Both the position numbers and the translations under genes were made by a program. DNA of 4,133 nt, from IMG/VR virus record IMGVR_UViG_2606217110_000002. One strand, written 5' to 3'. The DNA comes from a virus. Its lineage: Duplodnaviria; Heunggongvirae; Uroviricota; Caudoviricetes. The notes below the pieces were generated by a model that saw only the letters and a list, made by a program, of their open reading frames with translations, was not told the origin of the DNA and did no database searches. Shown piece by piece: positions 1 to 4,133 of this stretch (its first letter is position 1; each line of letters begins with the position of its first letter).

Positions 1-155
1 TGCACCAGAAAATTAAGGCTGCGCAGGACCTGAAATGGGCCAATGAAGCCAGGGCTAAGCAGGCTGAAAATCTGTCCGCTCTGGAGCAGGATATCACCAA
101 TCTGGAAAAAGCAGCGGCATTAAGCATTGCCAGAATGATTACATACCCACGTTAA
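1..155 (+). CDS. 3' end of an upstream ORF, 5' truncated by the window edge; hypothetical protein, function unknown
   Basis: Frame 3 is open from the window start to TAA at 153-155, giving HQKIKAAQDLKWANEARAKQAENLSALEQDITNLEKAAALSIARMITYPR. It is on the same strand as, and 22 nt upstream of, the next well-supported ORF, which suggests an operon. The K/A/Q/E-rich heptad-like composition suggests a helical or coiled-coil tail. No family was recognised. Confidence 0.5.
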   Translation, partial: HQKIKAAQDLKWANEARAKQAENLSALEQDITNLEKAAALSIARMITYPR

Positions 156-177
156 TGGTTAACCAACGAGGCTAATA

Positions 178-585
178 ATGGAATTTAAAGATTTACCAAA
201 AGAAATCCAGATAATTGCTGCAACGACACTCGGTGATAGTCTGGTGAAAATTGACCCGGCATACACCAAAAAAGAAACCATCGATAATATGGTTCGTAAT
301 GTGCGCAATGCTTTTTCAGGGCTATATGGTTCTGATAATCAAAAACAGGAAAACGATATTGATGAACGGGTAATTTCTGTTTGCCTGAATGGTCATGTTA
401 TTTCAGCAATCAGAACAGAAACGGCAACTGTTTTTGATTATCTCTGCATGATTCAGAGTCTTGCTGATGTTCTGTTGAAATCAAAAGATTTAGAAAACGA
501 TGCAAATTTACAGGGGCGCACAATAGCACATCCATATGCACATACTTTAGACTCTGTGGATATCAAAGATCCCACAAATCTTTAA
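178..585 (+). CDS. hypothetical protein, 135 aa, AT-rich accessory gene of unknown function
   Basis: Complete ORF from ATG 178 to TAA 583-585. A Shine-Dalgarno GAGG at 168-171 lies 6 nt upstream of the ATG. A rough by-eye count over the first 60 nt gives about 35% GC, below the downstream exonuclease gene. No catalytic motif or known family was recognised. Confidence 0.8.
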   Translation: MEFKDLPKEIQIIAATTLGDSLVKIDPAYTKKETIDNMVRNVRNAFSGLYGSDNQKQENDIDERVISVCLNGHVISAIRTETATVFDYLCMIQSLADVLLKSKDLENDANLQGRTIAHPYAHTLDSVDIKDPTNL

Positions 586-796
586 TGAAATAGTTAACGC
601 GAATTGTACTTGCTCTTTCAGTTGCTTTCAGAATACGCGTTGAAACTGCTGGCGGTAATTTAGTATTCCATTTATTAAAATCATGCCCGGGAAAGTACTC
701 TTCGAAAATACTTTTAACTGCAGACTCGCCTATTGAAATGCTGCTTACCATGCGATTTTGATAAAGGCATTTAGCAATAAGAGTTGATTTTAACAT
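563..796 (-). CDS. possible small hypothetical protein, 77 aa, convergent with and overlapping the 3' end of ORF 178-585
   Basis: It is the only open frame across the AT-rich stretch 586-796, where every + strand frame has stops. The start is ATG (reverse complement of 794-796) and the stop is TGA (reverse complement of 563-565). Only a weak purine-rich stretch (AGAAGAG) precedes the ATG, so the start and the reality of the gene are uncertain. It overlaps ORF 178-585 by 23 bp tail-to-tail. Confidence 0.35.
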   Translation of the reverse strand: MLKSTLIAKCLYQNRMVSSISIGESAVKSIFEEYFPGHDFNKWNTKLPPAVSTRILKATERASTIRVNYFIKDLWDL

Positions 797-831
797 TCAC
801 TCTTCTGAGGGTTGGTAATTAAGGAGTTCTC

Positions 832-870
832 CACGGGTGAGGTGGAGTGCGTGCGCCGGACACGGGTGAG
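832..870 (+). repeat. 10-bp direct repeat CACGGGTGAG, two copies (832-841 and 861-870)
   Basis: Read directly from the sequence; the copies start 29 bp apart. The second copy forms most of the loop of the hairpin GCCGGA(855-860)/TCCGGC(873-878). Only two copies are present, so this is not an array. Confidence 0.85.
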
Positions 871-1136
871 CATCCGGCACTGACAGTTTACTGAAAGGAT
901 ATATCCCTGAAAAGTCAGGGCATAACACGAAAGCGTACGGCGAAGGCCTTCACCTATGAGGCTTGTCGTTAAATTTAATTCGACCGTACGCTTCCGGTTG
1001 TGGCAATCCGCGAAATGGCGCGGCGGTAAGTATGGCAGGGGGACTATTCTCCCTCCCCTGTGGAGCACCGGGTTGTCAGGTTGACCATACGCCTGAGTGA
1101 CAACCCCGCTGCAACAACCCATGTTGATTACCTTTT

Positions 1137-1180
1137 GGCGGGTATCCGTTTTGTTTTTCCCATGATACCCGCCCCTTTTA
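1137..1180 (+). terminator. putative intrinsic (Rho-independent) terminator, + strand
   Basis: A perfect 10-bp GC-rich stem, GGCGGGTATC (1137-1146) with GATACCCGCC (1164-1173), has a 17-nt loop and is followed by CCTTTTAAA. The T-tract is only 4 nt and the loop is large, so termination would be partial at best. On the - strand the stem is followed by AAAAGG, so it is not a terminator in that orientation. Confidence 0.45.
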
Positions 1181-1183
1181 AAG

Positions 1184-1345
1184 TGAATTTTGTGATGCGG
1201 TGAATGCGGCTCAGCGCACGCGGAACAGTTAAAAAGGCCAGTTGACTTCCGTATTGGTTCTTATGGGTGGGTTCTCTGTATCCGGCGTTAATGGTTTACT
1301 GGTTAACGTCACCTGGAGGCACCAGGCGCCGCATCACAAAATTCA
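1184..1345. repeat. perfect 17-bp inverted repeat (TGAATTTTGTGATGCGG 1184-1200 / CCGCATCACAAAATTCA 1329-1345) flanking a 128-bp segment
   Basis: Verified base by base: the reverse complement of 1184-1200 equals 1329-1345. Allowing G-U wobble it extends outward by up to two more pairs (G1183-T1346, A1182-T1347). The left arm begins 4 nt after the terminator-like T-tract; the right arm ends 5 nt before the GAGGA Shine-Dalgarno (1351-1355) of small ORF 1363-1551. Confidence 0.9.
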
Positions 1346-1362
1346 TTGTTGAGGACGAGATA

Positions 1363-1551
1363 ATGGAAACGTTATTACCAAACGTTAATACGTCTGAAGG
1401 TTGTTTTGAAATTGGTGTCACTATCAGTAACCCAGTATTTACTGAAGATGCCATTAACAAGAGAAAACAAGAACGGGAGCTATTAAATAAAATATGCATT
1501 GTTTCAATGCTGGCCCGTTTACGCCTGATGCAAAAAGGATGCTGGCAATGA
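1363..1551 (+). CDS. small hypothetical protein, 62 aa (prophage early-region small ORF)
   Basis: ATG at 1363 is preceded by GAGGA (1351-1355) with a 7-nt spacer. The track's longer version starting at 1267 has no RBS. The stop TGA 1549-1551 overlaps the next start in an ATGA arrangement. Protein: METLLPNVNTSEGCFEIGVTISNPVFTEDAINKRKQERELLNKICIVSMLARLRLMQKGCWQ. No family recognised. Confidence 0.6.
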   Translation: METLLPNVNTSEGCFEIGVTISNPVFTEDAINKRKQERELLNKICIVSMLARLRLMQKGCWQ

Positions 1552-1751
1552 ATACTACATTTGCACTTGTTCTGACGGTTTTTCTTGTTTCCGGTGAACC
1601 GGTTGACATGGTTACTGGCGTATACGGCTCAATGAAAGAATGCATGGTTGCCGCAGCGGAACAGAAAATTCCCGGTAACTGTTATCCGGTCGATAAAGTT
1701 ATTCACATGGATAATAACGAAATCCCGGCAGGACTTAAAACAGCACCGTAA
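1548..1751 (+). CDS. small hypothetical protein, 67 aa, with hydrophobic N-terminus (possible signal peptide or membrane anchor)
   Basis: ATG 1548-1550 overlaps the upstream stop (ATGA, translational coupling). AAGGA at 1535-1539 lies 8 nt upstream. The N-terminus MNTTFALVLTVFLVSG is hydrophobic and there are two Cys (KECM, GNCY). The stop is TAA 1749-1751. The track's start at 1494 is less likely because most of that extension lies inside the upstream ORF. Confidence 0.6.
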   Translation: MNTTFALVLTVFLVSGEPVDMVTGVYGSMKECMVAAAEQKIPGNCYPVDKVIHMDNNEIPAGLKTAP

Positions 1752-1831: not shown

Positions 1832-4133
1832 ATGAGTAAAGTCTTTATTTGCGCCGCCATTCCGGACGAACAGGCAATAAAGGAAGAAGGTGCAGTCGCT
1901 GTAGCCACTGCCATTGAAGCCGGCGACGAACGTCGCGCCCGTGCCAAATTTACCTGGCAATTCCTGGAGCAATATCCGGCTGCTCAGGACTGCGCTTATA
2001 AATTTCTTGTTTGCGAGGATAAACCCGGTATACCCCGCCCTGCCCTCGATTCCTGGGATGCTGAATATATGCAGGAAAACCGCTGGGATGAGGAGTCAGC
2101 TTCCTTTGTCCCGGTTGAGACTGAATCAGATCCGATGAACGTCACTTTTGACAAGCTGGCCCCTGAAGTGCAGAACGCTGTCATGGTTAAGTTCGACACA
2201 TGTGAAAACATCACCGTTGATATGGTGATTAGTGCACAGGAACTGTTGCAGGAAGACATGGCAACATTCGACGGACATATCGTTGAAGCGTTGATGAAAA
2301 TGCCAGAAGTTAACGCCATGTATCCGGAACTTAAGTTGCATGCCATCGGGTGGGTTAAGCATAAATGTAAGCCTGGAGCTAAATGGCCCGAAATTCAGGC
2401 AGAGATGCGCATCTGGAAAAAACGTCGCGAAGGTGAACGCAAGGAAACCGGAAAATACACGTCTGCTGTTGATCTCGCCCGCGCCAGAGCCAATCAACAG
2501 AACACTGAAAGTTCAACAGGAAAAATCAGCCCGGTCATTGCTGCCACTCATCGCGAATACAAGCAGACATGGAAAACACTGGATGACGAACTGGCCTACG
2601 CTCTCTGGCCTGGTGATGTGGATGCCGGAAACATTGACGGCAGCATCCATCGCTGGGCAAAAAATGAAGTTATCGACAACGACCGCGAAGACTGGAAGCG
2701 TATCTCGGCATCAATGCGCAAACAGCCTGATGCCCTTCGCTACGACCGCCAGACTATTTTTGGCCTTGTCCGTGAACGTCCGATCGACATTCACAAAGAT
2801 CCTGTGGCACTGAACAAATACATTACTGAATACCTGACTACAAAGGGCGTGTTTGAAGATGAAGGAAGAAATCAGAGCGCAACTGATACTCTCTCGTCGC
2901 CAGTACCAGAAACTGATGCAGTGGAAACGGCAATTCCGGACAACGAAAAAACCGAATGCAAAGTGGAAGTCGAACCATCTGTAGAGCGTGAAGGGCCGTT
3001 CTACTTCCTCTTCACCGACAAGGATGGCGAAAAATACGGTCGCGCAAACAAACTTTCTGGTCTGGATAAGGCGCTGGCTGCCGGGGCTACTGAAATCACG
3101 AAAGAAGAATATTTCGCCCGCAAAAACAGTACATACTCAGGTTCACAACAAAATACTGGTGCATCTGACACGACCGCACAGCCAGAACCGGTAAAAGTTA
3201 CCGCTGACGAAGTAAACAAAATTATGCAGGCAGCCAATATCAGCCAGCCTGATGCCGATAAGTTGCTTGCTGCATCACGTGGTGAATTTATTGAAGGGAT
3301 TAGCGACCCGAATGATCCGAAATGGGTTAAGGGGATCCAGACCCGCGATACTGTGAACCAGAACCAGCAAGAAACGGAACAGAACGACCAGAAAGCGGAA
3401 CAAAACAGCCCAAATACGCAACAAAACGAGCCAGAAACGAAACAACCTGAACCAGTAGTGCAACAGGAACCGGAAAAAATCTGCACCGCCTGCGGTCAGA
3501 GCGGTGGTGGCAACTGCCCTGATTGTGGTGCGGTGATGGGCGACGCAACATACCAGGAAACATTCGATGACAAGAACCAGGTTGAAGTTCAGGAAGACGA
3601 TTCGGAGAAAATGGAAGGCGCTGAACATCCACACAAGGAGAATGCTGGCAGCGCTCAGGATCACGCCAGCGATAGTGAAACTGGCGAGACGGCAGATCCC
3701 TTAATTACGGTGAACGGTCATCGCGTTATCACATCCACCAGCAGGACGTGTGACCATCTAATGATCGACCTTGAAACCATGGGAAAAAATCCCGATGCCC
3801 CGATCATCTCAATAGGTGCAATATTTTTCGATCCACAAACCGGAGATATGGGACCGGAATTTAGTAAGACTATCGATCTGGAAACTGCTGGCGGAGTCAT
3901 TGATCGGGACACCATTAAATGGTGGCTTAAGCAATCACGCGAAGCGCAATCTGCCATTATGACCGATGAAATCCCGTTAGATGATGCACTGTTACAATTG
4001 CGGGAATTTATCGACGAAAACTCCGGCGAATTTTTTGTTCAGGTCTGGGGAAATGGAGCCAACTTCGACAACACGATTTTGCGCCGTTCATACGAACGGC
4101 AGGGGATCCCCTGCCCGTGGCGTTACTACAACG
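1832..4133 (+). CDS. large prophage exonuclease, RecE-like / exodeoxyribonuclease VIII-type, with C-terminal DEDD-type 3'-5' exonuclease domain; 5' complete, 3' truncated by the window end
   Basis: ATG at 1832 follows an in-frame TAA (1823-1825) and a GAGG at 1818-1821. Frame 2 translates without a stop to the window end, at least 767 codons; I translated the N-terminal ~117 codons and the zinc-ribbon/DEDD regions codon by codon and the rest less rigorously. It is missing from the supplied track only because it has no stop in the window. The protein starts MSKVFICAAIPDEQAIKEEGAVAVATAIEAGDERRARAKF and contains DKLLAASRGEFIEGISDPNDPKWVKGIQTRD, which I recall (unverified) as conserved in RecE-family proteins. 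All alternative-frame and antisense ORFs in this span are taken as spurious. Confidence 0.9.
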   Translation, partial: MSKVFICAAIPDEQAIKEEGAVAVATAIEAGDERRARAKFTWQFLEQYPAAQDCAYKFLVCEDKPGIPRPALDSWDAEYMQENRWDEESASFVPVETESDPMNVTFDKLAPEVQNAVMVKFDTCENITVDMVISAQELLQEDMATFDGHIVEALMKMPEVNAMYPELKLHAIGWVKHKCKPGAKWPEIQAEMRIWKKRREGERKETGKYTSAVDLARARANQQNTESSTGKISPVIAATHREYKQTWKTLDDELAYALWPGDVDAGNIDGSIHRWAKNEVIDNDREDWKRISASMRKQPDALRYDRQTIFGLVRERPIDIHKDPVALNKYITEYLTTKGVFEDEGRNQSATDTLSSPVPETDAVETAIPDNEKTECKVEVEPSVEREGPFYFLFTDKDGEKYGRANKLSGLDKALAAGATEITKEEYFARKNSTYSGSQQNTGASDTTAQPEPVKVTADEVNKIMQAANISQPDADKLLAASRGEFIEGISDPNDPKWVKGIQTRDTVNQNQQETEQNDQKAEQNSPNTQQNEPETKQPEPVVQQEPEKICTACGQSGGGNCPDCGAVMGDATYQETFDDKNQVEVQEDDSEKMEGAEHPHKENAGSAQDHASDSETGETADPLITVNGHRVITSTSRTCDHLMIDLETMGKNPDAPIISIGAIFFDPQTGDMGPEFSKTIDLETAGGVIDRDTIKWWLKQSREAQSAIMTDEIPLDDALLQLREFIDENSGEFFVQVWGNGANFDNTILRRSYERQGIPCPWRYYN
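3350..3478 (+). other. low-complexity Q/N/E/T-rich linker inside the exonuclease CDS
   Basis: Translation TVNQNQQETEQNDQKAEQNSPNTQQNEPETKQPEPVVQQEPEK. The DNA is T-poor with reiterated gaacca/gaaacg-type units. It probably forms a flexible interdomain linker. Confidence 0.7.
3482..3526 (+). other. CxxC-x7-CxxC motif (putative C4 zinc ribbon) inside the exonuclease CDS
   Basis: Cys codons at 3482, 3491, 3515 and 3524 give ICTACGQSGGGNCPDCGAV. The spacing is typical of a small zinc-ribbon knuckle. Confidence 0.55.
3761..4133 (+). other. DEDD(h)-type 3'-5' exonuclease domain, N-terminal part (continues beyond the window)
   Basis: The motif MIDLETMGKNPDAPIISIGAIFFDP has an acidic D-x-E pair (D 3767-3769, E 3773-3775) at the start of a hydrophobic strand, the classic Exo I motif of DnaQ-like exonucleases. 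The downstream WGNGANFDNTIL resembles the Exo II region. Confidence 0.75.

Follow-up and report, generated by a model that had tools for sequence, protein, structure and literature searches.

A block of 387 nucleotides (nt) that holds no gene and is rich in potential stems (positions 797–1183) lies ahead of dicB in a Caudoviricetes record (IMGVR_UViG_2606217110_000002 of IMG/VR; the whole 4,133-nt stretch analyzed is termed the window), and the question it raises is what such a block is for. The original prediction, made from the letters of the DNA, took it for a candidate structured noncoding RNA. Alignment and gene order identify the block as part of the untranslated sense-strand (+) spacer RNA of the dicB operon in a Qin-type lambdoid prophage of Escherichia coli. 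The prediction held as to structure, lack of coding and + strand, and failed as to a free-standing gene or a new locus, the block being the homologue of the K-12 dicF region. Overall, the locus is a known one, the dicF untranslated region, in which two features had gone unrecognized: an allele that occupies the slot of the small RNA DicF without being DicF, and a conserved, pseudoknotted junction ahead of that slot. It is described in this way because no Rfam family and none of the literature searched covers the junction, although homology of the region had been noticed before, in a 1994 hybridization study and in the P1 genome annotation. The 1994 study reportedly covered dicF-related prophage sequences.

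Positions 797–1363 are colinear with the ydfC–dicF–dicB spacer of E. coli K-12 (L003 2543–3109), with 92% mean column identity over four aligned sequences. An E. coli genome that is 99% identical across window positions 560–1400 has the order dicA-like repressor, ydfA, ydfB, ydfC, two inserted genes, spacer, dicB, DUF1482 gene, exonuclease, xis, and int, and the K-12 gene order also matches; the spacer RNA is unannotated in the record of that genome, and positions 797–1362 of the window are gene-free. The spacer would be transcribed within a polycistronic mRNA comprising ydfABC, the two inserted genes, the spacer itself, dicB, ydfD, exonuclease, xis, and int, and the K-12 literature describes a long stretch, untranslated and with dicF inside it, in the dicB operon (PMC5069750, PMC9438474).

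The stems that had drawn attention to the block are all present. Three are perfect (931–940/984–993, 1070–1078/1098–1106, and 1137–1146/1164–1173; 10, 9, and 10 base pairs [bp]), and three shorter hairpins (855–878, 905–920, and 1036–1060) can be seen both in the sequence and in the fold of minimum energy. In the window, eight inverted repeats have a seed of 8 nt or longer, and four of these sit in the block, so the clustering on which the prediction was argued exceeds chance. Its other compositional claims were likewise confirmed: GC content is 0.52–0.54 inside the block as compared to 0.37–0.39 to its left, and the + strand ends in a 10-bp stem followed by CCUUUU, as expected of a terminator. 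The + strand of the block folds at -147 kcal/mol (z = -3.2 versus dinucleotide shuffles), and the spacer as a whole is likewise more stable than shuffled versions (z = -4.9). The strand cannot be told from energy alone, because the minus strand of the block folds well too (z = -4.3 versus dinucleotide shuffles). A long-range helix in the minimum-energy fold of the window (814–824/1124–1132) was rejected, since among the homologues a given 5′ sequence type is not tied to a given linker type.

The absence of a credible open reading frame (ORF), also claimed originally, stood as to conserved coding; the minus strand does hold an ORF of 110 amino acids (790–1122), the sole sizeable one of the block, and the block might accordingly be a protein-coding or decayed gene. 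This alternative was examined in 88 unique full-length spacer homologues, a set that includes the window and was drawn mostly from IMG/VR by an exact 22-mer seed, with seven members taken from genomes via DicB. In 42 of the 88 the minus strand runs without a stop for 100 codons or more (100–130 codons), and hypothetical proteins are annotated here in some phage records. The frames differ among these homologues, and the open frame in the window is not that of K-12 across identical junction sequence; homologues also differ through indels of 1–2 nt, and variability by codon position is flat (0.064/0.081/0.081), without third-position excess. The ORF has no match in Pfam and a single 19-residue match in PHROGs (E = 0.0012), RefSeq places no gene call over the block in K-12 or in the 99%-identical genome, and the G–U pairs described below are compatible with the + strand alone. 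Because the open frame shifts between homologues, and codon periodicity and a credible protein family match are absent, the alignments mark the block as noncoding; a gene here is highly improbable, and the degraded coding gene that the prediction had set against itself was not borne out. The minus-strand open frames are a compositional effect, one that probably lies behind the "hypothetical protein" calls in phage records (HannyBb, F1055_0036, and cdtI orf40).

The best conserved module of the spacer is a 119-nt domain (M4) that, as judged from covariation, is a conserved four-way junction with a pseudoknot. Among 95 distinct sequences aligned to a covariance model, 97.5% of cells are paired, versus 33–54% with slid partners, and ten pairs change on both sides; the observed values were reached by none of 500 shuffles. 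At 1071–1092 and two other sites the apparent conservation is inflated, identity there having been forced by the exact seeds. The central pair of the pseudoknot is U–A in 76 sequences, C–G in 13, and U–G in 6, with no mismatch, and the C–G form occurs in two backgrounds, the phage P1 group and an E. coli-type sequence (L184), with U–G intermediates in four. Similar exchanges are seen in the helices: U–A to C–G in P4 of the phage P1 group, U–A to C–G in P3a of three P1-like sequences (L176, L150, and L145), and U–G/U–A and G–U/G–C series in the P1 helix, while P3b is found as unrelated hairpin sequences (GGGG/CCCC, CAGGUG/CACCUG, and CUGGGG/CUCCAG). Pairs 1030–1031/1065–1066 of the first junction model were dropped for the pseudoknot; they are C·C in the phage P1 group, whereas the pseudoknot is never mismatched in the 95 sequences. 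The common U–G and G–U pairs of the P1 and P4 helices become A·C mismatches on the opposite strand, which places the junction RNA on the + strand, the sense strand of the operon. The compensatory changes that the prediction had asked of its stems are present, including in the first one, where the window has U–A and most homologues C–G. What had not been foreseen is that the hairpins at 1036–1060 and 1070–1106 belong to one core junction, common to phage P1 and to the leaders of other prophages.

Junction copies were located by BLAST and covariance model; 16-mer scans of viral contigs returned mostly chance matches, and the covariance model confirmed 68 hits among 198 loci. Of 5,426 complete E. 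coli genomes, 4,135 have a match to the junction, and none of the five matches listed coincides with an annotated feature. Each locus carries one copy, and no second copy was found in about 330 loci of up to about 15 kb, some of which may stop short of the pR operon. In cdtI/CPS-53-type lambdoid phages a near-consensus promoter (TTGACA-16-CATAAT) behind cI is followed after about 280 nt by the junction, which lies ahead of yfdP-/yfdQ-like genes and xis, with no N gene there, judged from annotation; in phage cdtI (L333 4657–4711) cI is followed by a terminator and then by this promoter. Salmonella phage F1055 also carries it, as do P1, P7, SJ46, RCS47, and P1-type plasmids of Escherichia, Salmonella, Klebsiella, and Shigella. 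In P1-type phages it starts about 30 nt past the C1-controlled Pban promoter, with tRNA genes, tciABC, and ban behind it, and in the Qin type it lies behind ydfABC with dicB downstream. In every allele inspected a GC-rich hairpin and U run follow the junction after about 10–35 nt, unrelated in sequence between contexts, so that the order of junction, then terminator is fixed.

The P1 copy coincides in part with a misc_feature termed the "dicF-like region" in the ban operon leader (NC_005856 68791–68892), an annotation that is limited to the 3′ half of the junction and gives no function. It has the same core (P2, P3, the pseudoknot, and P4) at about 76% identity, and likewise lies between a repressor-controlled early promoter and an intrinsic terminator. 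It departs from the window copy in its closing helix, which is altered or missing, in its terminator, another, short UUCG hairpin (GCCCAUC-UUCG-GGUGGGC, then six or more U), and in being followed by tRNA genes and ban rather than dicB.

In the window the terminator hairpin (1137–1173) occupies the DicF slot exactly, between flanks conserved on both sides; position-by-position alignment puts the equivalent of the DicF 5′ end at about 1132 (K-12 dicF starts at L003 2883). The two share their layout, an A/U-rich single strand followed by a terminator hairpin and U run, upstream of dicB, with the 340 nt before it and the leader behind it homologous. The sequence in the slot is different. The Rfam DicF model (RF00039; gathering score 48 bits) scores 76.7 bits on the K-12 control; it has no match here, whether positions 790–1200 (E up to 10) or the whole window (E up to 5) are searched. 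The window allele has neither the DicF 5′ segment UUUCUGGUGACG nor the ftsZ-pairing loop AGUUUUACUCCG, both being replaced, so that the features by which DicF is recognized, its 5′-terminal seed UUUCUGGUGAC and its loop, complementary to the ribosome-binding site of ftsZ, are absent. An mSystems paper is said to place target pairing in the two DicF segments that are missing here. DicF is otherwise characterized by its release through RNase E at the 5′ end, by Hfq binding, and by inhibition of cell division. The prediction had stated that the block does not match DicF, which is right as to the Rfam model and incomplete as to position; by its sequence, the window hairpin is a positional replacement of DicF rather than a member of the DicF family. 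Nor is it unique in this, as between the conserved flanks the 88 homologues show at least five unrelated forms: canonical DicF in the majority, the window type (GGCGGGUAUC..GAUACCCGCC), which has relatives in L004, L121, L076, L081, L082, and L005, a short GGCGGAAAUGGAUAUCCGCC type, an L113/L128 type, and an L062 type. Other contexts contribute further forms, and hypervariability is confined to the terminator slot and the hairpin apices. The window allele family was found by megablast in 190 of 5,426 complete E. coli genomes (about 3.5%) and is unannotated in the eight matches listed; RefSeq annotation is likewise missing for the window allele.

Rfam covariance scans of the whole window, the block alone (790–1200), and the K-12 spacer, a check that had been proposed with the prediction, returned no family for the block, for the upstream 340 nt, or for the junction; matches to mir-138, Hrs13, and RAGATH-25 were set aside as chance (E about 0.3–4). 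C4 antisense RNA and IsrK are what we take to be the Rfam families relevant to the P1 c4, P4 CI, and IsrK antisense RNAs, and no match of these types was obtained in release 15 for the window or the K-12 spacer at E up to 10, the presence of those families in the library not having been confirmed. ARAGORN found no tRNA or tmRNA genes. The literature searched held nothing relevant, either on the sequences of the junction and the allele or on antitermination in the dicBF or P1 ban operon.

On balance, the folded spacer RNA of the dicB operon probably works as a termination and processing module. From 5′ to 3′ its parts would be the hairpins at 829–878, a weak hairpin, a long hairpin, the junction, the linker, and the Rho-independent terminator (Table 1). 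Part of the polymerases would stop at the slot terminator, and a cut in the linker near 1132 would yield a terminator-hairpin small RNA of about 50 nt, which we infer for the window as the replacement of DicF; it probably has different targets, since its 5′ segment and loop differ. The remaining polymerases would read through into the dicB leader and dicB. The corresponding events are known for the K-12 homologue only and are carried over to the window by analogy: the 5′ end of K-12 DicF comes from RNase E, and its 3′ end from Rho-independent termination (53 nt) or from an RNase III cut of read-through RNA (72 nt) (PMC5069750, PMC9438474). The junction would act in cis on read-through or processing at the adjacent terminator, preferably by letting a fraction of RNA polymerase past it and by marking the 5′ boundary of the small RNA. 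Help with read-through is favored because early operons with essential downstream genes carry a leader terminator whose conserved companion is the junction fold alone.

Several observations weigh against this reading. The M4 sequences are closely related, so that many of the covariation counts are not independent events, and the large alignment, having been fitted to a covariance model, is biased towards the proposed structure. The phage P1 group does not clearly retain the closing P1 helix. Shigella phage 75/02 Stx has just the last 28 nt of the junction, with the slot hairpin and downstream leader retained before kil, so the junction is dispensable there. The window terminator has a large 17-nt loop and just four U, and may be weak. 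In a simple duplex fold of the window allele with ftsZ mRNA, shuffles score similarly. Finally, no conserved antiterminator pairing was found between the junction and the variable terminators, the alternative pairing being present in one of the seven alleles folded.

Table 1. Features of the window, with the part of the spacer under study in the middle rows
Feature	Position	Strand	Description and basis
ydfC, 3′ end	1–156		Read from position and sequence alone
Unknown-function gene phrog_1363	178–585	+	PHROGs
Unknown-function gene phrog_10348	563–796	-	PHROGs
Upstream two-thirds of the ydfC–dicB spacer	797–1183	+	Colinear alignment with K-12 and synteny
Hairpin M1a	829–846	+	CUCCAC/GUGGAG, GGAG before it; two unrelated sequence types at the same position
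Hairpin M1b	855–878	+	GCCGGA/UCCGGC; six pairs kept in 58–65 of 65 sequences; loop variable
Hairpin M2	905–920	+	CCCUG AAAAGU CAGGG; window type; weakly supported
Long hairpin M3	926–996	+	Outer stem 928–944/980–996; apex variable
Junction M4	997–1115	+	Four-way junction and pseudoknot, 119 nt; covariance-model alignment
M4 helix P1	997–1004/1108–1115	+
M4 helix P2	1008–1012/1019–1023	+
M4 helix P3a	1025–1027/1067–1069	+
M4 helix P3b	1036–1041/1055–1060	+
M4 helix P4	1070–1081/1091–1106	+
M4 pseudoknot	1030–1035/1085–1090	+	GUAUGG with CCAUAC (P4 loop)
Linker	1116–1136	+	A/U-rich, single-stranded; alignment with K-12
Intrinsic-terminator hairpin	1137–1180	+	GGCGGGUAUC/GAUACCCGCC, 17-nt loop, then CCUUUU; perfect 10-bp stem 1137–1146/1164–1173
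dicB leader M6	1184–1362	+	Closed by duplex 1188–1204/1328–1345; minimum-energy fold
dicB, cell-division inhibitor gene	1363–1551	+	Pfam DicB PF05358, E = 3e-40
ydfD-like DUF1482 gene	1548–1751		Pfam
Long exonuclease gene	from 1832		ORF map, Pfam, and comparison with neighbors

The nearest alternative takes the junction for a cis-acting processive antiterminator, like the put RNAs of phage HK022; once made, it would bind the elongating polymerase and render it resistant to the adjacent terminator and to later ones of the early operon. There is precedent in the put RNAs themselves, structured early-operon leader RNAs that lie upstream of terminators in a lambdoid phage without N (PMC9378689), a setting that the junction may share. 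HK022-type put RNAs suppress termination in cis through the zinc-binding domain of RNA polymerase β′. In repressor-controlled early operons (P1 Pban, the cdtI pL leader, and Qin) the junction always lies on the promoter side of the first intrinsic terminator, a location without N holds by annotation for cdtI-type phages and P1, the P1 leader terminator looks strong and yet has tRNA genes and ban behind it, and the downstream genes differ with each context, which suggests a generic role at the level of transcription. However, put is about 70 nt long and forms two stem-loops with a short triplex (PMC9378689), a two-hairpin V shape, as compared to about 120 nt in a four-way junction with a pseudoknot, and comes in two copies (putL and putR), whereas the junction is single, with no putR counterpart. 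In the Qin type it follows three genes (ydfABC) rather than standing beside a promoter, 75/02 Stx lacks most of it, and the terminator immediately adjacent in every case is left without a reason, so that a put-like activity is possible but doubtful. Rather unlikely, in our estimate, is a purely structural role, in which the 570-nt untranslated stretch is folded against Rho loading and nucleases and the junction is a barrier that fixes the RNase E cut. The stability of the whole spacer, the retention of shape in M1a, M3, and P3b while their sequence is replaced, and the analogous long duplex past the terminator in two otherwise unrelated leader types all fit such a role, as does the RNase E processing just 3′ of the junction in K-12 (PMC5069750). 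A plain barrier needs no pseudoknotted junction, however, nor should the loop and junction nucleotides then be about 76% identical between lambdoid prophages and P1 while their surroundings are replaced.

Two further alternatives are improbable. Were the junction a sensor, that is, a riboswitch or protein-binding attenuator setting terminator formation, a pseudoknotted multi-helix junction with conserved unpaired nucleotides right before a terminator would be the expected layout of aptamer and expression platform, and in the K-12 minimum-energy fold the DicF terminator does pair, through its 3′ arm, with the G-rich 5′ half of the junction. That pairing is the one seen in a single allele of the seven, about 10 to 35 nt separate junction and terminator, the sequences of the terminators are not related to one another, and no Rfam riboswitch family or known riboswitch model matches; a classical riboswitch is less likely because a conserved antiterminator pairing was not found. 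Equally, there is little to recommend release of the junction as a stable RNA acting in trans, such as a sponge or decoy that binds a factor of host or phage. Its strong structure and conserved sequence, the known K-12 RNase E site that bounds its 3′ side, and the start of the P1 junction about 30 nt from the transcript 5′ end are consistent with such an RNA, but complementarity to known targets was not found, and the fixed place beside a terminator would go unexplained. Of the termination and processing module that we prefer, a bolder version can be offered tentatively, as a possibility that we consider doubtful: the junction may represent an unrecognized class of phage cis-regulatory RNA that controls terminator passage, whether put-like or sensing, and the slot a swappable small-RNA cassette of which DicF is the best-known allele.

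DicF is among the bacterial small RNAs that have been known longest, and to our knowledge the roughly 340 nt of conserved RNA ahead of it have never been explained. The junction is conserved more widely than DicF, with a match in about three quarters of complete E. coli genomes and in P1-type plasmid prophages, and it offers a mutable object for the question of how early operons without N, and the P1 ban operon, pass their leader terminators. It also bears on how small RNAs internal to operons have their ends defined. Because the DicF position is allelic, with its several unrelated terminator hairpins, annotation by the DicF model misses the other alleles, and the window allele may regulate different targets. 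We know of no conserved pseudoknotted domain directly upstream of SroC or CpxQ. These small RNAs, derived from mRNA 3′ untranslated regions or operons, are otherwise alike in arising by early termination and RNase E cutting of a longer mRNA (PMC9438474).

Upstream of the junction, the spacer is a series of hairpin modules. Both unrelated sequence types of M1a fold, at -11.7 and -12.2 kcal/mol. In both (window 821–869), GGAG precedes the hairpin, and a frame of 8–10 codons starts at GUG and stops at UGA or UAA in the M1b loop (in the window, GUG at 837 and stop at 867–869); this short frame could be a mini-ORF or a coincidence. M2 is shrunk to CUGA/UCAG in the K-12 type. In M3, the perfect 10-bp stem extends to 928–940/984–996, and one outer-stem pair is C–G in 60 sequences, U–G in 3, U–A in 1 (the window), and C·A in 1, with G–U variants at several other pairs; the apex is hypervariable, and at least six sequences unrelated to one another occur there. 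L010 (1630–1758) and L042 (5219–5347; compare window 926–1016) have lost M3 together with the 5′ part of the junction, the deletion point in both being a short repeat, CGCGAAA, that is present at the start of M3 and in P2; the window reads ACGAAA where M3 starts. Between M1b and M3 (compare window about 880–925), L037, L111, L023, L042, L064, L120, L099, and L014 carry about 600 nt of inserted sequence, and in L037 (2200–3400) the insertion follows M1b directly and carries a 143-amino-acid gene on the opposite strand. Inserted genes in the homologues indicate that the modules of the spacer are separable.

Downstream of the slot, the dicB leader (M6) is closed by a long-range duplex of about 17–21 bp, a plausible RNase III substrate according to the fold. 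An analogous long duplex stands behind the terminator in cdtI-type leaders; in phage cdtI (L333 5173–5262) it is an 18-bp long-range duplex (ACAAAACAGAGAAGAGCA/UGUUCUUCUCUGUUUUGU) past the terminator of the junction, enclosing the leader of the first gene. An M6-type leader precedes kil, not dicB, in Shigella phage 75/02 Stx (L334 3097–3272). The resemblance to STnc100 (RF02076) and its relative PasD is limited to this leader (1186–1340), outside the block, and scores 28.2 bits in the window and 34 in K-12, short of the 47 bits set as the gathering score. PasD is found beside late-region genes (antiterminator Q and holin/lysozyme), not in the early-left operon (bioRxiv 10.64898/2026.05.13.724894). 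The Pas small RNAs and STnc100 were rejected as the identity of the block on these grounds, late-region location or a sub-threshold match to the dicB leader only.

The two genes inserted ahead of the spacer are absent from K-12 and converge, overlapping by 23 nt. Within the exonuclease ORF, at window positions 3300–3500, A exceeds T with a skew of up to 0.64, and this stretch codes for a linker of low complexity in which Q, N, E, P, and K abound.

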